A stretch of 64,000 nucleotides of DNA from Phycisphaerae bacterium (GTDB lineage: Bacteria > Planctomycetota > Phycisphaerae > UBA1845 > Fen-1342), in assembly GCA_033764195.1 (NCBI GenBank), contig JANRJD010000032.1:362262-426261 (forward strand), in the 5' to 3' direction. The position numbers and the translations under genes are program-made. Positions 4,133 through 45,941 of this stretch are shown piece by piece (positions within the stretch are counted from its first letter, which is position 1; each line of letters opens with the position of its first letter). The notes beneath the pieces were generated by a model. It made no database searches, was not told where the DNA came from, and saw nothing but the letters and a program-made list of their open reading frames with translations.

Positions 4133-5485
4133 TCAATTTCTCGCCACAAACTCCGGCAAGCCCGGCCCGCGCGGCGTGCCGCAGCGCTGCAGGTTCTCGA
4201 AGAAGCGGCGGCGGCGGTGGTCGACAAACTCCGGGTCGTAGAGCCGCTTCGCCAGCTCGACGATGCCGCTCTGCAATCGCTCGGGGGGCATGTTGGTCGG
4301 GCGATAGTTCACGTCAAACAGTGTGCAGCGCCGCCAGTCGCCGGGGTGCAGAATGCGCCCCGCCGCCAGCAGCCGGTCATAGAGCGGCGTGCCGGGGAAG
4401 GGCGTGAGCACGGTGATCTGTACCTCAAACAGCGCGGTGCGATCGGCGAAGTCGTAGATCGCGTCGAAGACCTCTTCGCCTTCGCCGTCGAGCCCGAGGA
4501 TGAAGCAGCCGTTCACCGTGACGCCGCGCGATTGAATCGCGTGTACCGCGGCCTCGTAGCGGTCGTGCATTTTCAGCTTCCAGTTGCGCCGCAGCTCGAT
4601 ACCGTCGAGGCCGCGCGTCGCCGGGCTTTCGAGGCCGATCAGCACCTGGCGACAGCCGGCCTCGCGCATCAGATCGAGCAGCTCTGGGTCGTCGGCGATG
4701 GAGATGTCGGCCTCAGTGAACCACTTGATGCGCTCGGGGATCAACGCGCGGAGCAATTCCTTGTAGTGCTTCTTCTGCGCAAAGCTGTTGTCATCCGCAA
4801 ACTCGATGAACGGCTGCGCCCAGATTTCCTTGATCGCCCGCAGCTCCGCCAGGACTCGCTCGACCGGCTTCACGCTGTAGCGCGGCGTAAGCAGGATCGA
4901 GCTCGCGCAGAAGTCGCACTGATGCGGACAGCCGCGGCTGGTTTGCAGCGGAATGCGGTTGTAGCGATCGACGTCGAGCAGATCGAAGCGCGGCAGGGGG
5001 GCATCGACCAGGTGAAAGTGTTCGCCGGGCCGCGCCTGATAGCGCGGCTTCAGTTGCCCGCGGCGGGCGTCGTCGATCAATCGCGGCCATAGCGGCTCGG
5101 CCTCGCCAATGACGATCGCGTCGGCGTGCTGCGCGGCTTCGTCAGGCAGCTTCGTGACATGCAGCCCGCCCAATACCACGCGCGTGCCCCGGGCGCGATA
5201 GCGATCGGCGACGGCGTAGGCGTCATGAATCTGTGCCGAAAAGGAGGAGATCGCCACGAGGTCAAAGCCATGGGGCAGGTCGGGCTGCTTACGCAGATCG
5301 GCGATCTCGTGATATTCGACCTCGCAATCGGGCGGCGTCAGCCCCGCCAGCGTCAGCAGCCCAAGGCTCGGCATCGAGGCGATCACCTTGCTCCGCTCGA
5401 CGACGCCGGGCATGGTCAGCCCGGCGGCGTTCAGCTCCTCGCTGAACGCGCGTATCCCACTCATCGCAATCAACAGAATCCGCAT
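4133..5485 (-). CDS. B12-binding domain / radical SAM domain protein
   Basis: N-terminal cobalamin-binding-like Rossmann segment (MRILLIAMSG...) followed by the radical SAM motif CPHQCDFC (CxxxCxxC). Start set at M29 of the track ORF. Confidence 0.8.
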   Translation of the reverse strand: MRILLIAMSGIRAFSEELNAAGLTMPGVVERSKVIASMPSLGLLTLAGLTPPDCEVEYHEIADLRKQPDLPHGFDLVAISSFSAQIHDAYAVADRYRARGTRVVLGGLHVTKLPDEAAQHADAIVIGEAEPLWPRLIDDARRGQLKPRYQARPGEHFHLVDAPLPRFDLLDVDRYNRIPLQTSRGCPHQCDFCASSILLTPRYSVKPVERVLAELRAIKEIWAQPFIEFADDNSFAQKKHYKELLRALIPERIKWFTEADISIADDPELLDLMREAGCRQVLIGLESPATRGLDGIELRRNWKLKMHDRYEAAVHAIQSRGVTVNGCFILGLDGEGEEVFDAIYDFADRTALFEVQITVLTPFPGTPLYDRLLAAGRILHPGDWRRCTLFDVNYRPTNMPPERLQSGIVELAKRLYDPEFVDHRRRRFFENLQRCGTPRGPGLPEFVARN

Positions 5486-5733
5486 CGCTGCCTCACTCCA
5501 CGCGGCCGAATCGAGGGAGCACGACCGCCAAACATAGCTTACGCAGGAGGGCCAGCGGGGAGGCAGCAATTGATGGAAAACGACGGGAAAACGGGGGTGA
5601 GTGAATGAAAGTGATTTATGAATTCGGGGGACATGAGCGGGTTCCGCGGGGCGAACTTTAGCGCACGCCGTTGGGGCAAAGGCGCGACGAGACTCGACGG
5701 CAGGCCGGACCGAGATATCAGAGCAATCATGGA

Positions 5734-25096: not shown

Positions 25097-26344
25097 CTAA
25101 CCGCCCAGCAGCCGCTCTGCACCGCGGACGGCCAGCAGCGCCACCAACCCGTGGCCGCAACCCAGTCCCTCGGGCAGCGAAAACTCGAGGTTGCGCAAGA
25201 CGCAGGCGACCTGTGGCCCCATGACGCTTGCCCAAAAATCGACCACCGGAAATCGATCAGCGTTGCGATAGAGCCACGCGAGCATGCGCAGGTCGTCGGC
25301 CAACACGCCGGAAGCCGATTCGATCGCGCTCCGGACCGCCGCGTCATCGTGATCCATGAGCGATCTCGCGAGGCGGACGACGGCGTTCCAATCGCGACAG
25401 TAGCCGTCGATCCGCGCCGCCTGCGCCGCGTGCGTCAATCGAAAGCTGTCGAGCATCGGCAAGTCGACGATCAGATTCGATAAGTCGGAGCGATAGTCCT
25501 GGTGAAACAGTTGGTTGATCAACGATCGGTAGGGGCGCGGGGTGGCGTTGAAGGTGCCCATCTCCATGTGCCGGCCGATCAGGATCGACCGGTCGCGCAG
25601 ATCGCAGACTCGAACCGCGATGCCGGCTTGCTCGCTGGCGCGCGTGGCGACGCGGCGAACGTCGTCGCCGCTCCAGAACGTGCAGCGAAATCGTTCCACT
25701 TCGTCCACCGCTGACTGGTCGACCAGATACCCCATGTGGTACTCCAGATACTCGCCGCTGCCGCGCGACCAGTACTTGGGCCACTCGGGCGAGAAGCGAC
25801 CCAGCAAATCGAGCACGACAAACGCGGGGCGCGATGCGTGTCGCGCGATGTCCCCGATCAGTCGCGTCAGTTCGCCTTCGCTCAGGTGCGAGAAAGATCC
25901 GTAGGACGAGTAATACAGGTCGAAACTCGGCTCATCGGCGAGAGGAAAGCCGCGGGAGAGGTCGGCTTGTTCGAAACGCACATACGGGCGATCGGCGAAG
26001 TTGCGCCGTCCCTGTGTGACCATGCCCGCTGAGATATCGACGCCGGTATAGCACTCGAGGTCATCTTCGATGGCCACAAAGGTGCGATCGCGCTGGCGAA
26101 CGGCGTTGGTCACCGGGACGTGAGTGATCAGATGAAGCCCTTCACCCGCGCCGCAGCCGAGGTCCACCACGCGCAGCTTGGGGGATTGGCGAAGCAGCGC
26201 TTCGAGTGCCGGGCGCAGGGTCAGCTTGGTGCACGTGTCCTCCCAGAATTTTCGGGTGTAGTCCTTCTTGCCGTGCAGGCCGCTCTCGTCGCGGCCGTAA
26301 AACCCCATCGCCACTGCCGCATCGTAAAACTCGGTTTTTGCCAC
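25097..26344 (-). CDS. Class I SAM-dependent methyltransferase domain protein with long C-terminal extension
   Basis: SAM-binding motif I VVDLGCGAGEG and the downstream acidic motif YTGVDIS. Confidence 0.65.
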   Translation of the reverse strand: MAKTEFYDAAVAMGFYGRDESGLHGKKDYTRKFWEDTCTKLTLRPALEALLRQSPKLRVVDLGCGAGEGLHLITHVPVTNAVRQRDRTFVAIEDDLECYTGVDISAGMVTQGRRNFADRPYVRFEQADLSRGFPLADEPSFDLYYSSYGSFSHLSEGELTRLIGDIARHASRPAFVVLDLLGRFSPEWPKYWSRGSGEYLEYHMGYLVDQSAVDEVERFRCTFWSGDDVRRVATRASEQAGIAVRVCDLRDRSILIGRHMEMGTFNATPRPYRSLINQLFHQDYRSDLSNLIVDLPMLDSFRLTHAAQAARIDGYCRDWNAVVRLARSLMDHDDAAVRSAIESASGVLADDLRMLAWLYRNADRFPVVDFWASVMGPQVACVLRNLEFSLPEGLGCGHGLVALLAVRGAERLLGG

Positions 26345-26662
26345 CGGCGTTCCTTTCTTGATCTTGCGTTCACGTCAAAACGCTGCGTCTCTCGCCGCGT
26401 CCGCTGGAAAGCGCGACGACCACCCGGGGCCCCGAGCGCGGTGGACCGCGCGGAAGGAGCCTCAGGATCGAGCAAACGCAGAACGGCCCCGCATCGCCTG
26501 ACGAGTCGATGTGGGGTTGGAAAAAGTTGTGTTGAGCGTGTGAAAACGCTTAGGGAGGAGGCTTGGGCCGCATGGCGGAAACTCCAGCAAGTGCCTGCGA
26601 GGTTAGCTGACGGGCTCGCGGTGCTTGATCCGCGTTCGGCGACATCGCCGAATTCGCCCCGG

Positions 26663-26691
26663 CGTCGCGAGCAGTCAATTTGCTCGCGACG
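26663..26691. terminator. Hairpin CGTCGCGAGCA-gtcaatt-TGCTCGCGACG downstream of the glycosidase gene
   Basis: 11-bp perfect stem. Confidence 0.3.
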
Positions 26692-26869
26692 CAGTTGGGT
26701 TCCCCGCCGCCATCAGATGGTGATCCGATGGCGTTCGGCTGCTTCAGCAAACCGATAGTACTCGCCAACCAGATGTCGGCGACAGAAATCTGACAAAAAC
26801 GGACCTGCGAGATACGCCGGGACTCAACGCGATGCTCGGCAATGACACCTAGCCACTTGGCCGTACTCG

Positions 26870-30840: not shown

Positions 30841-30913
30841 ACGTTGGTCGCTCAATTGGCAGAGCAACAGATATGTGAATCTGTGCGTGCGAGTTCGAAC
30901 CTCGCCCAACTCC
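30841..30913 (+). pseudogene. Degenerate tRNA-like element (intact D-arm and T-arm, defective acceptor and anticodon loop)
   Basis: The D-arm GCTCAATTGGCAGAGC and T-arm GCGAG-TTCGAAC-CTCGC are canonical. The anticodon stem ACAGA/TCTGT encloses an 8-nt loop. Only 5 of 7 acceptor pairs form and there is no CCA. It is probably a pseudo-tRNA or an att-site remnant. Confidence 0.35.
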
Positions 30914-31257
30914 CCCTCTCCAGGACGATCGCAAAATCGTCTTGAGAACCGCCGAAAGGCAACTGAATGCGAACCGGCGGCGCGATGGCGCCGCAAACCT
31001 GTCGCAATTTGTGGCTCGTGGTTTCGTCGAAGAGTGGTCGCGCCGCGGGTGTGGCTGCCGATCGCGACAAACCGCGGGTGATTGCGACAACGCTGCGCGA
31101 CTTTGCGAGTCCGCGATTTTCGCCTGCAAACGGCCCGTGCGGGGCGTCTGATGACGGGGAGGCATCAGACGCCCGGCGAGCCGGGAGTGTGCGAAGCGCG
31201 GAATCCCGTCGGCGACAACGGGGTCGACGGCGCGGTCGTCCGCCGGTTCGCGGTTTT

Positions 31258-42138: not shown

Positions 42139-42969
42139 ATGAAATTCTCGCCTTTGCTTCGCGCTCTTTGCGTTCTCTCGTTCGGTGCCGCGGTCGCTAC
42201 CGCTCAGACGCCGGCTGCGCCGGCGCCCGCCGCGCAACCGGAGCTGACCAGCGGCCGCCGGATCCTTGAGAAGTCGGATGCGGTGCTGAAGTCCATCACG
42301 GCCGCGACTTACGATGTCGAAGCTTTCGCCGGACCGGTGCAGGCGCCCGACATGGTCAAGTTTGCGGGCAGCGGCTCGGTCGCCGACAAGGTCGACCGCG
42401 GTCTCCCGCGATTTCGCGTGAAGGGATCGATGACCACCAAGGGTCGCGATGCCGCCGGCAATCCGGTCCCGGGCAAGGAACTTGAAATCGCTTACGACCG
42501 CAAGGAATTTAGCACGATCAATGCATCGGAGCGGATGTACGGCGTCTCGCGCAACCCGATGGACTTCGGGCCGATCGTCGACATGACCGCGATCGCGATC
42601 GCCCACGAGTATTGCAACACCCAGCCCTTCAAGGCCGAGCTTGAGGGCAGCGTCGATCTCGAAGCGAGTGAGGCAATCGGCGGCGTCGATTGCTACGTGC
42701 TGAAAGTGGTCTATCCGCAGGGCTCGCTGGTGACGCGCTTCTGGATCGGCAAGAGCGATTTCCTGCCGCGCAAGATGGTCCGCGAGGCGGATCAGGGGGC
42801 CAACGGTCGCGTCGTCGGCACGACGACTCTGACCAACGTCCAGGTGAACCCGACCTTGGCCGAAGACGCCTTCCGCCTGAAGCGGCCTGACGGATTTGGC
42901 GACTTCCCCGCCCCTCAGCCCGTCGTAACGTCGCAATCGGTGGCCGGCAAAGAAGACCCGCGAAAGTAA
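42139..42969 (+). CDS. Secreted hypothetical protein (LolA-like/outer-membrane-lipoprotein-carrier-like beta fold suspected)
   Basis: Signal peptide MKFSPLLRALCVLSFGAAVATAQ. The in-frame upstream part of the track ORF overlaps the DinB gene, so the start was set at this ATG. Confidence 0.5.
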   Translation: MKFSPLLRALCVLSFGAAVATAQTPAAPAPAAQPELTSGRRILEKSDAVLKSITAATYDVEAFAGPVQAPDMVKFAGSGSVADKVDRGLPRFRVKGSMTTKGRDAAGNPVPGKELEIAYDRKEFSTINASERMYGVSRNPMDFGPIVDMTAIAIAHEYCNTQPFKAELEGSVDLEASEAIGGVDCYVLKVVYPQGSLVTRFWIGKSDFLPRKMVREADQGANGRVVGTTTLTNVQVNPTLAEDAFRLKRPDGFGDFPAPQPVVTSQSVAGKEDPRK

Positions 42970-43002
42970 TCCGCGGGCCTTCGCCGAAGCGCCGCGACCG
43001 GA

Positions 43003-43230
43003 CTATTTCTTCATCGCTTCCATCGTGGAAATGACTTCGTCATTCTCCGGGAAGCGACCGGTCTGATGCTTGCTGTAAATCATCTTCCCGTCGACAACGA
43101 CGTCGAAGATTCCGCCGGTGCCTTTGATCAGCTCCGCCTGAACGCCGAACTGATCCTTGATCTCGTCCGCCAAACTGGCGGCTCTGGGCAGATAGTTTCA
43201 CATCGTGCAGTAGGTGATCGACACCTTCAT
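43003..43230 (-). CDS. SelW/Rdx-family selenoprotein (CxxU motif; in-frame TGA = selenocysteine at codon 11)
   Basis: Hand translation gives MKVSITYCTM-U-NYLPRAASLADEIKDQFGVQAELIKGTGGIFDVVVDGKMIYSKHQTGRFPENDEVISTMEAMKK. The TGA falls exactly at the Sec position of the Rdx CxxU redox motif, and the GxFxV and GRFP family motifs follow. The gene is absent from the ORF track because of the internal TGA. Confidence 0.7.
43165..43182 (-). promoter_or_regulatory. Candidate SECIS-like hairpin (GCCGCCAGUUUGGCGGAC) 17 nt 3' of the in-frame UGA
   Basis: CCGCC/GGCGG stem with an AGUUU loop containing G and U. The spacing is roughly compatible with a bacterial SECIS. Confidence 0.3.
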
Positions 43231-43287
43231 GCGATTGCCTCCTTCTCCGCTTACATAGAACTCAGGATGTATGCGTCCCTCAACGGG

Positions 43288-43887
43288 TTACTTCGACCGC
43301 GTCGATGCCCACGAGGATAGCGCCTCGATCAGCGGCCGTCGCTTGGGCTTATAACTTTCGAAACCCAGTTGATCCATCTCGTCCAGCGCGCGCTGCAACG
43401 GCCAGCCCTCCCGCGCGATCCGATAGGCCGCGCAGAGCACGCCGGTGCGATGAAAACCCTGCTCGCAATGAACCAGCACCGGGCCGCCGCCTTCGTCGAA
43501 CACCCGCAGAAAACGCTCAAAGACGTCCGCCGGCGGCATGCGCTCGTCGGAAAACGGAAGATGCACAAAGCCGACGCCGTTCGACTCGCACCAGGCCCGC
43601 TCCTTGCGAAACCATCGGCCGCGCAGGGGGTGTCGCGTGCCGCCTCGGGCGCAGACGATCGTGCCCAGTCCGTGCTTGCGTCGGATGGTTTCGAGATCGG
43701 CCACGCGCGGCTGTCCGCTGCGCAGCAATACGCCAGGCGCCACCACGCTGAAATGCGCCAGCCCGTCATATCGCGCCCCGACCAGCCCCTGCAGCCAGAG
43801 CCACCACTGCTGCGGCTCCATCCAACGCGGGCGCGGGGCCGTCTTCAGCGCGGCCTGGTTCGCCTGAGCTCGTGCGCCAGCGGCCAT
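43288..43887 (-). CDS. Protein tyrosine / dual-specificity phosphatase (CX5R active site)
   Basis: VHCEQGFHRTG is an HCxxGxxR(S/T) P-loop. The start overlaps the pyrH stop by one nucleotide (TAATG). Confidence 0.7.
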   Translation of the reverse strand: MAAGARAQANQAALKTAPRPRWMEPQQWWLWLQGLVGARYDGLAHFSVVAPGVLLRSGQPRVADLETIRRKHGLGTIVCARGGTRHPLRGRWFRKERAWCESNGVGFVHLPFSDERMPPADVFERFLRVFDEGGGPVLVHCEQGFHRTGVLCAAYRIAREGWPLQRALDEMDQLGFESYKPKRRPLIEALSSWASTRSK

Positions 43888-44609
43888 TAGCGCTCCATTC
43901 CGACGCTGGTGCCGACCTTTTCGCCGACGATGACGCGCCGCATCGTGCCCGGTTTCAGCAGATTAAAAACAACGATCGGAATGCGGTGCTGCTCGCAGAC
44001 GTCGATCGCGCTCACGTCCATCACTTTGAGCCGCTGATCGATCACCTCTTTGTAACTGAGCGCCCCATAGAGCTTTGCGTCGGGGTTTTTCTTCGGATCG
44101 CTGTCGTACACGCCGTCGACCTTGGTCGCTTTCAACAGCGCGTCGGCGTTCAGCTCGGCTGCCCGGAGCGCCGCGCACGAATCGGTCGTGACGTGCGGGT
44201 TCCCCGTGCCCGCCGCCAGAATCACCACCCGGCCGCGGTTCATGTGCTGCAGCGCCCGGCGACGAATAAACGGCTCGCAAACGCGCGTGATCTCGAGCGC
44301 GCTCTGAACGCGGGTGTCCTTGCCCGCTCGTTCCAGCCCTTCCTGCAGCGCCAGCGCGTTCAGCACCGTAGCCAGCATGCCCATGTAGTCGGCGGTCGAA
44401 AGATCGATGCCCAGATCTTTCGAAAACGTGGCGCCGCGCATGAAGTTTCCGCCGCCGCAGACGACGGCGACCTGCACCCCCAAATCGACGACCTCGCAAA
44501 TCTCGCGCGCCGTGCGATCGAGCTCTTCACGATGGATGCCCCAACTTCCGGGCGGGCAAAATCCCTCGCCGCTGATCTTCAGCAGCACGCGTTTGTACTT
44601 CGATTGCAT
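43887..44609 (-). CDS. pyrH: UMP kinase
   Basis: KRVLLKISGE...VVCGGGNFMRG and VDGVYDSDPKKNPDAKLY are classic PyrH motifs. Confidence 0.9.
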   Translation of the reverse strand: MQSKYKRVLLKISGEGFCPPGSWGIHREELDRTAREICEVVDLGVQVAVVCGGGNFMRGATFSKDLGIDLSTADYMGMLATVLNALALQEGLERAGKDTRVQSALEITRVCEPFIRRRALQHMNRGRVVILAAGTGNPHVTTDSCAALRAAELNADALLKATKVDGVYDSDPKKNPDAKLYGALSYKEVIDQRLKVMDVSAIDVCEQHRIPIVVFNLLKPGTMRRVIVGEKVGTSVGMER

Positions 44610-44861
44610 GAAATTCCTAAACGGTTCGCACTTCGTTCGACAATGTCATCTTACGGGGACATCCGCCGTTTGCCCATGAGCGAAGCCGGCCGAAGGCGCC
44701 GTCAGACCAGCCTTCACGATTCTCGCGGACGGCGAACCGGCGCGCTGGCGTGCGCGCCATTGCGACGTTCTCGCTCGCCCGCCCCAGCGCTCCCGAAGCC
44801 ACCGCTCGACCTGCACAGGATTTGCCAGCCCGCGCCGGTTTGCGGTATCACGACCGCAACG

Positions 44862-45941
44862 ATGGGCACTCGAAAAGCAGGCAACGGCAACCTCACCTAC
44901 CGCGCCGCCGGCGTCGACATACACGCCGCGGATGACTTCGTCGATCGCATCGGCCCGCTCGTGCGGCGAACCTACGGGCCGCGCGTCATGGGCGGCCACG
45001 GCGGCTTCGCGGGCGCCTTTCGGCTCGATTACGACGAAAAGCTGTTTCAGCGCAACTATCGCGACCCGGTGCTGATCGCCTGCACCGACGGCGTCGGCTC
45101 CAAGCTGCTGGTCGCCATCGAGAGCGGGCGGGTCGACACGGTCGGCATCGACCTTGTCGCGATGAACGTCAACGACCTCATCACCACGGGCGCCGAGCCG
45201 CTCTTTTTTCTCGACTACATCGCGGTTCACAAGCTCGACCCGGCCCGCGTGGCGCAGATCGTGGGCGGCATCGCCCGCGGTTGTGAGATCTCGGGCTGCG
45301 CGCTGCTGGGCGGCGAGACGGCCGAGATGCCCTCGATGTACTCGCGCGGCCACTTCGACCTCGCCGGCTTCGCCGTGGGCGTGGTCGAGCGCGGCCGCAT
45401 CATGAACAGCAAGCGCGTCCGAGTCGGGGACATCCTGATCGGCCTCGGCTCCGACGGCATTCATTCCAATGGCTACGCCCTCGCCCGCCGCGTGCTGATC
45501 GAACATGCCCGCCTGCCGCTCGACAAAGAGGTGCGCTCGCTGGGCGAACCGCTCGTCGATGCGCTGCTGCGGCCGACGCGCATATATGTCCGCCCGATCT
45601 GCGAGCTTTTGCGAAGCTATCGCGCCGCGCCGCCCATCAGCGGCATGGCCCATATCACCGGCAGCGGATTGCCCGGCAACGTGCCACGCCTCTTGCCGAA
45701 GGGCTGCAACGCACTGATCGAGCGCGGCTCATGGCCGATTCCCCCGATCTTCGGACTGATGGAGCATCACGGCGTCGCCGAGCAGGAAATGTACGACGTC
45801 TTCAACATGGGCATCGGCTATGTGCTCGCGGTGAGGCCCAAGTCGGCGGCGCGGGTGCAGCGAGCGCTGGAAAAAGCCGGCGAGCGAGCATTCGCCATCG
45901 GGCGCGTGAAGAAGGGGCAGGGCGAGGTGGAGTTTCGGTAA
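44862..45941 (+). CDS. purM: Phosphoribosylformylglycinamidine cyclo-ligase (AIR synthase)
   Basis: YRAAGVDI...ACTDGVGSKL...DLVAMNVNDL. Start set at the ATG at 44862 within the longer track ORF. Confidence 0.9.
   Translation: MGTRKAGNGNLTYRAAGVDIHAADDFVDRIGPLVRRTYGPRVMGGHGGFAGAFRLDYDEKLFQRNYRDPVLIACTDGVGSKLLVAIESGRVDTVGIDLVAMNVNDLITTGAEPLFFLDYIAVHKLDPARVAQIVGGIARGCEISGCALLGGETAEMPSMYSRGHFDLAGFAVGVVERGRIMNSKRVRVGDILIGLGSDGIHSNGYALARRVLIEHARLPLDKEVRSLGEPLVDALLRPTRIYVRPICELLRSYRAAPPISGMAHITGSGLPGNVPRLLPKGCNALIERGSWPIPPIFGLMEHHGVAEQEMYDVFNMGIGYVLAVRPKSAARVQRALEKAGERAFAIGRVKKGQGEVEFR

Follow-up and report, generated by a model that had tools for sequence, protein, structure and literature searches.

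A SelW-like (Rdx) gene with a probable selenocysteine codon, truncated in public annotation, in a Phycisphaerae bacterium

Small SelW-like proteins with a CxxU redox motif, in which U is selenocysteine (Sec), have been recognised as bacterial selenoproteins since about 2005 (PMC1088965). In the Sargasso Sea metagenome they formed the most abundant selenoprotein family, with 48 genes carrying bacterial SECIS (bSECIS) elements (PMC1088965). SelW-like selenoproteins are also found in Deltaproteobacteria, Clostridia and Actinobacteria, and few Cys homologs occur in Sec-using organisms (PMC1794560). The published bSECIS model describes an apical loop of 3 to 9 nt on an upper stem of 4 to 16 bp with a minimum free energy of −7.5 kcal/mol or lower, a G within the first two bases of the loop that is usually followed by G or U, and a distance of 16 to 37 nt between the UGA and the loop (PMC13188914).

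The gene reported here is located in a 64-kb stretch of DNA from a Phycisphaerae bacterium (the window; GC content, 64.6%). We assign it with high confidence, on the basis of sequence comparison, as a functional Sec-encoding SelW-like/Rdx gene on the minus strand, with a predicted product of 74 residues in which the UGA would be read as Sec. With the described bacterial SelW-like selenoproteins it has in common the CxxU motif, a length of about 75 aa and an in-coding bSECIS with a small, G-containing apical loop (PMC1088965, PMC1794560). Sec forms outnumber Cys forms there too; here the UGA was found in all of the best 80 relatives. No essential difference from these proteins was seen, the Phycisphaerae host and the gene neighbourhood being the case-specific elements, and the gene is an ordinary member of a known family; the finding is right but not novel. 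The features of the locus are collected in Table 1.

Table 1. Coordinates (in the window) of the SelW-like gene, its predicted elements and the genes beside it
Feature	Position	Strand	Details
Candidate transcription terminator hairpin	42945-42986	-	Downstream of the stop codon; fold, inference
Predicted SelW-like/Rdx selenoprotein CDS	43003-43230	-	74 residues including Sec11, plus TAG stop; translation, Pfam/NCBIfam profiles, PDB relatives
Final stop TAG of the SelW-like gene	43003-43005	-	Translation
Candidate bacterial SECIS hairpin, in-coding	43167-43181	-	Stem CCGCC/GGCGG (43177-43181, 43167-43171), apical loop AGUUU (43172-43176)
In-frame UGA, putative selenocysteine codon (codon 11)	43198-43200	-	TGA at the homologous codon in relatives
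Predicted redox motif Cys8-Thr-Met-Sec11, CxxU type	43198-43209	-	TGC ACG ATG TGA; aligns with CTQC of 2FA8 and 3DEX
Shine-Dalgarno GGAGAAGGAGG	43238-43248	-	Read from the sequence; 7 nt from the start codon ATG (43228-43230)
DSP/PTP phosphatase	43288-43887	-	HCEQGFHRTG, CX5R motif
pyrH-type AA_kinase	43887-44609	-	Same strand, upstream of the SelW-like gene
purM	44862-45941	+	TIGR00878, 408 bits; divergent from pyrH

Translation of the minus strand from 43230 to 43003 gave MKVSITYCTM-TGA-NYLPRAASLADEIKDQFGVQAELIKGTGGIFDVVVDGKMIYSKHQTGRFPENDEVISTMEAMKK-TAG, a 75-codon ORF with a single in-frame TGA inside the motif C-T-M-U. This is identical to the ORF given in the original prediction, which had been read from the DNA letters and had further proposed that the protein belongs to the Rdx/SelW family, that the TGA occupies the Sec position, that a SECIS-type stem-loop follows it and that the six-frame ORF track had split the gene; each of these proposals was borne out by the data described below. 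As to the last, only a 56-aa piece of the gene, begun at a TTG, is in the mechanical ORF list (43003-43173). The Shine-Dalgarno sequence was graded strong, and the equivalent AGGAGG stands before the ATG in the homologs L005-L010. The hairpin that follows the stop codon has a calculated energy of −32.7 kcal/mol (z = −3.74), was matched by 1 of 200 shuffles, is followed by UUUGCC and extends into the 3′ end of the DUF2092 gene, which is convergent. It may be a terminator that acts in both directions and is shared with that gene, and it is listed as a candidate because the scan for consensus promoters and terminators reported nothing, this hairpin included.

For the profile searches, Sec was entered as Cys in the query. 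The window protein matched Pfam PF10262 (Rdx) with 77.2 bits (cutoff, 22.6; E 1.2e-21), and the alignment placed aa 2-69 on profile positions 1-71 of 74, unbroken across the TGA. It also scored 99.6 bits against NCBIfam NF041051, "SelT/SelW/SelH family (seleno)protein" (equivalog cutoff, 88), and 60.5 bits against TIGR02174, CXXU_selWTH (cutoff, 34.2), so that curated profiles for Rdx and SelT-SelW-SelH proteins were matched above cutoff over the full domain. Eight solved structures were found by sequence, the bacterial 2FA8, 3DEX, 2OKA, 2OJL, 2OBK and 2P0G together with 2LJK and 2NPB, and in the two alignments that were shown, the CxxC (YCTQC) of 2FA8 and 3DEX aligned on YCTMU of the window protein. 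The bacterial structures are Cys-form Rdx proteins (Atu0228 for 2FA8 and SAV_2001 for 3DEX), matched with E values of 1.6e-11 to 1.5e-07 and with CxxC on CTMU; they differ from the window protein in having Cys rather than Sec, a length of about 100 aa with extra termini, and an identity of about 30%. Mouse SelW (2NPB; weak sequence match, E 0.004) and MIEN1 (2LJK) have the same Rdx fold, with CxxU in SelW or CxxC in MIEN1 at the corresponding position. Eukaryotic Sec insertion uses a SECIS in the 3′ UTR with a kink-turn and SBP2, whereas bacterial SECIS hairpins lie within the coding sequence and are bound by SelB.

The fold was assessed on an AlphaFold2 model of P0004, a natural full-length Cys homolog with 51% identity that served as a proxy for the window protein (pLDDT 91). 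The model showed the topology beta1(3-8)-CxxC-alpha1(14-28)-beta2-beta3-beta4-alpha2 expected for Rdx, with the redox motif between beta1 (residues 3-8) and alpha1 (residues 14-28). The best PDB matches of this model were the bacterial SelW-related 2FA8, 3DEX, 2OBK and 2P0G (TM 0.85-0.87), followed by MIEN1, mouse SelW and thioredoxins. A thioredoxin-like beta1-alpha1-beta2-beta3-beta4-alpha2 fold is thus predicted from the proxy P0004 for the window protein.

The identity of codon 11 was addressed by a survey of relatives using one genome per GTDB species, in which 479 relatives were found and the best 80 loci were retrieved. In all of these best 80 loci, which span at least five phyla, the homologous codon was TGA and formed part of a C-x-x-U motif, and the N-terminal pattern M-K-[IV]-S-I-x-Y-C-x-x-U was likewise kept in frame in 80/80. 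The loci came from Phycisphaerae, other Planctomycetota, Betaproteobacteria/Burkholderiales, Myxococcota/Deltaproteobacteria, Acidobacteriota (Vicinamibacterales, Thermoanaerobaculia and Holophagales) and others, the best match (97%) being the Phycisphaerae MAG JALHOX010000101.1. Given the E value of 1.2e-21 for a profile match that runs across the TGA, and the TGA in 80/80 loci, the observation is far beyond chance. Upstream DNA was also read for two of the truncated protein calls described below, on ten contigs (L001-L010), four of which are syntenic with the window and 96% identical, the other six being 68% identical with another neighbourhood. All ten contained an ATG with a Shine-Dalgarno sequence, then M-K-[IV]-S-I-T-Y-C-x-x-TGA in frame. 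P0004, encoded at L093, is a true natural Cys form with TGC at the Sec position. The in-frame UGA, which is kept in orthologs, therefore stands where the Cys forms, P0004 and the solved structures, carry Cys. A SECIS-like segment, GCCGCG-AGUUU-GGCGGU, was observed to be still present in the gene for this Cys form (L093, 771-1013); it would fit either descent of this Cys form from a Sec ancestor or constraint of the sequence by the conserved ASLA peptide.

The candidate SECIS hairpin was present in the window as proposed, its stem beginning after 16 intervening nucleotides from the UGA. It agrees with all four constraints of the published model (PMC13188914): the loop has 5 nt, with G as its second base and U as its third, the stem has 5-6 bp, the UGA-to-loop spacing is 21 nt and the energy is −9.5 kcal/mol (−9.9 kcal/mol with an A-U closing pair). 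The position of the hairpin just downstream of the UGA and inside the ORF is common to E. coli fdhF-type/consensus bSECIS elements (PMC13188914), while the primary sequence is unrelated to that of the fdhF SECIS and the stem is short. Folded as a single sequence, the hairpin showed no significant gain in stability over shuffled controls (z −0.4 and −1.1), and its support is therefore comparative rather than thermodynamic. Comparison was made on a gap-free alignment of 80 sequences. RNAalifold returned three invariant pairs from this alignment and did not recover the hairpin, which was for that reason tested as a named structure. The named helix had 86.6% of cells paired, versus 18-56% when the 3′ partners were slid, and the observed covariation score was reached by none of 500 column shuffles. 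The pair formed by columns 21-33, which are the wobble positions of two Ala codons, was C-G in 65 sequences, U-A in 7, and G-C, G-U and U-G in 2 each, and the stem shows compensatory changes at synonymous sites; pair 22-32 had an internal mismatch in about a third of homologs.

In the 79 relatives the loop read AGUUU (30), AGUCU (25), GGUCU (23) or AGUAU (1), the GU being invariant in 79/79, including the wobble base of the Ser/Gly codon. In 79/79 this codon was AGU or GGU, with no instance of AGC, GGC or UCN, although most of the genomes are GC-rich. Since the wobble U is invariant despite GC-rich genomes, a constraint at the RNA level is indicated, protein coding alone being insufficient to account for it. 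With its wobble U and synonymous compensation, the 80-locus alignment offers a clean example of RNA-level constraint laid over coding sequence.

The region downstream of the UGA was compared over 58 codons. Against L001 and L011, whose proteins are 96-97% identical, there were 6-7 synonymous changes and 1 nonsynonymous change, and against more distant Phycisphaerae and Planctomycetota, dN was about 0.2 and dS about 0.7-1.6, with dN/dS about 0.1-0.3. These values point to translation of the sequence downstream of the UGA, and the purifying selection after the TGA excludes a decaying pseudogene. An alignment of homologs had been named with the original prediction as a check on this point, and it found the UGA position conserved and the region after it selected.

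Purifying selection after the TGA cannot by itself separate Sec read-through from translation of a 56-residue C-terminal fragment that starts at an internal TTG (43173) and has no selenocysteine, and exactly this product is given both by the ORF list (43003-43173) and by the public call for the window gene (P0001, 56 aa, starting after the TGA). We nevertheless consider it very unlikely that the fragment is the real product. Gene callers routinely truncate small selenoprotein genes. A protein database search returned 18 homologs (P0001-P0018), 16 of which are calls of 43-63 aa that begin after the TGA position, and their internal starts are inconsistent in position and codon, as is typical of artefacts. 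The TTG of the window gene falls within the loop of the hairpin and lacks a Shine-Dalgarno sequence, while a strong one precedes the upstream ATG. Furthermore, both the family profile and the solved structures take in, as their first part, the N-terminal segment with the redox motif, which is the segment conserved in frame in the best 80 relatives, and the fragment would be without strand beta1 and the active site. The original prediction had described the gene as unannotated; it is not absent from public annotation, as P0001 shows, but it is systematically truncated there.

Reading of the UGA as something other than Sec, by genome-wide reassignment (code 4 or 25) or by near-cognate read-through inserting Trp or Cys, is judged to be highly improbable. 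One database entry, P0002, does show W at the Sec codon, but its DNA locus (L092, 223-441) has TGA there. The Trp evidently arose from gene calling under genetic code 4, since the locus does not translate to P0002 under code 11. TGA ends 7 of the 20 family-verified genes of the window and several of the homologous Rdx genes themselves; because it is an ordinary stop in these genes, the recoding is site-specific. A conserved SECIS-type hairpin, moreover, would have no role if the UGA were read in any of these ways. Practically no weight is given to a pseudogene, that is, an Rdx gene in which a Cys codon (TGC or TGT) became TGA by nonsense mutation in an organism that lacks the Sec machinery, as the comparative data effectively refute it: the TGA is one base from a Cys codon and the window yielded no genes for Sec machinery, but several phyla carry the TGA throughout the best 80 relatives, the downstream frame is intact with its excess of synonymous changes (6-7 versus 1) in the species-level cluster, and the SECIS hairpin is maintained with covariation and an invariant loop GU.

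Complete gene sets for Sec insertion are present in some, but not all, Planctomycetes, and Sec usage in the group is patchy (PMC4807772). In the 64-kb window, no tRNA-Sec was detected with ARAGORN or Rfam, which gave only a tRNA-Arg and a degenerate tRNA-like element, and selA, selB and selD were not found among about 30 suitably sized ORFs searched with NCBIfam/Pfam. An E. coli SelD probe matched nothing when the ORFs of the window and of every locus, in all six frames, were searched with phmmer, a weak negative given that the probe sequence was unverified. Beside the homologs, no tRNA-Sec was found in 60 loci, and neither a tRNA-Sec nor a SelD-like ORF was found within 3 kb of any of them. 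Because the UGA, the SECIS and the downstream ORF are all maintained, we infer that selABCD would be present in the source genome.

Several other candidate genes were considered and rejected. The tRNA-like element at 30841-30915 (+) was not accepted as tRNA-Sec; it has a 6-nt anticodon loop, was called 'tRNA-?(Thr|His)(gt)' by ARAGORN with a mismatched acceptor stem, and scored only 39.7 bits against the Rfam tRNA model, so that it is probably a pseudo-tRNA or otherwise degenerate. In a syntenic contig, the AIRS/AIRS_C gene next to pyrH looked like a possible SelD, but NCBIfam assigned it to PurM (408 bits). The 689-aa mechanical ORF at 43872-45941 proved to be an artefact, in which an open upstream frame overlaps the opposite-strand pyrH and phosphatase genes. 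A GC3-filtered scan of the window for TGA read-through returned 77 off-frame candidates for a second selenoprotein gene, none of them credible. Separately, a B12-binding radical SAM protein was observed at 4133-5569 (-), for which the named subfamilies gave only weak matches (HpnJ, 98.8 bits versus a cutoff of 577), one of them, at 26 bits, being the CUAEP/CCAEP-tail radical SAM (seleno)protein family; no Sec codon was evident in it.

The neighbours named in the original prediction were recovered. The SelW-like gene follows the pyrH-type AA_kinase and the CX5R phosphatase (DSP/PTP), with a gap of 57 nt, and is convergent with the gene for a DUF2092 predicted periplasmic protein, beyond which lie DinB_2, TatA and an MFS transporter. 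We rejected a link in function between the SelW-like gene and the CX5R phosphatase, the adjacency being seen only in the species-level cluster; a neighbourhood limited to such a cluster says nothing about function. The largest cross-phylum cluster of neighbours was discarded as off-frame low-complexity noise. The sole neighbour to recur, in 11 Planctomycetota genomes (L012, L016, L018, L021, L025, L044, L049, L051, L055, L075 and L076), was a secreted AhpC/TSA-like protein, of which the window has no copy. Its gene is immediately downstream of the Rdx gene and on the opposite strand in 10 of the 11. The protein has about 400 aa, with a thioredoxin fold (PF00578, 35.9 bits) and a long helical C-terminal region, and it may be a functional partner of the SelW-like proteins in Planctomycetota. 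In the one member examined, that of L044, the usual CxxC is seemingly missing (FFFRSDDASVEF).

A wider proposal combines these elements: this clade of SelW-like proteins would be essentially obligate in its use of Sec (80/80 of the top relatives, in at least five phyla), the SECIS and the conserved peptide A-[AST]-[SG]-L-A would form one co-constrained module spread by horizontal gene transfer as a self-contained cassette, the AhpC/TSA-like protein would be the partner in Planctomycetota, and in this organism the SelW-like protein might instead re-reduce the adjacent, Cys-dependent CX5R phosphatase. We regard this proposal as unlikely. The neighbourhood evidence for such partners is weak because the phosphatase adjacency is confined to the species-level cluster and the AhpC/TSA-like gene is absent from the window. 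Elsewhere in the window, a c-di-AMP (ydaO/yuaA) riboswitch was observed at 26577-26750 (-), with 62 bits (gathering score, 38); the ORF downstream of it, of 415 aa at 25097-26344 (-), had no NCBIfam match.

For the SelW-like gene read as a selenoprotein gene, the following mechanism is proposed, which is SelB/SECIS recoding of the standard type. Translation would start at the ATG (43230) behind the strong Shine-Dalgarno sequence, and the UGA at codon 11 would be decoded as selenocysteine. The hairpin CCGCC-AGUUU-GGCGG, 16 nt downstream and with GU in its apical loop, would act as the bacterial SECIS, recruiting SelB.GTP.Sec-tRNA(Sec) to the ribosome and thereby outcompeting release factor 2. 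The product is predicted to adopt a thioredoxin-like fold with Cys8 and Sec11 at the junction of beta1 and alpha1, where the two residues could form a reversible selenenylsulfide. With such a reversible Cys8-Sec11 bond, the most likely role of the product would be that of a small thiol/selenol oxidoreductase, with glutathione or some other thiol as the probable coupling partner. Actual Sec insertion, the redox chemistry and the physiological substrate are in each case predicted.

The finding is mainly of value because it corrects an annotation and marks the organism as a likely user of selenocysteine. The gene illustrates a systematic error, in which 16 of 18 homologous entries were truncated after the TGA and one was mistranslated with Trp. 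It also makes selenocysteine use by this Phycisphaerae lineage very probable, and selABCD should accordingly be present in the genome, possibly along with other selenoprotein genes split by a TGA.
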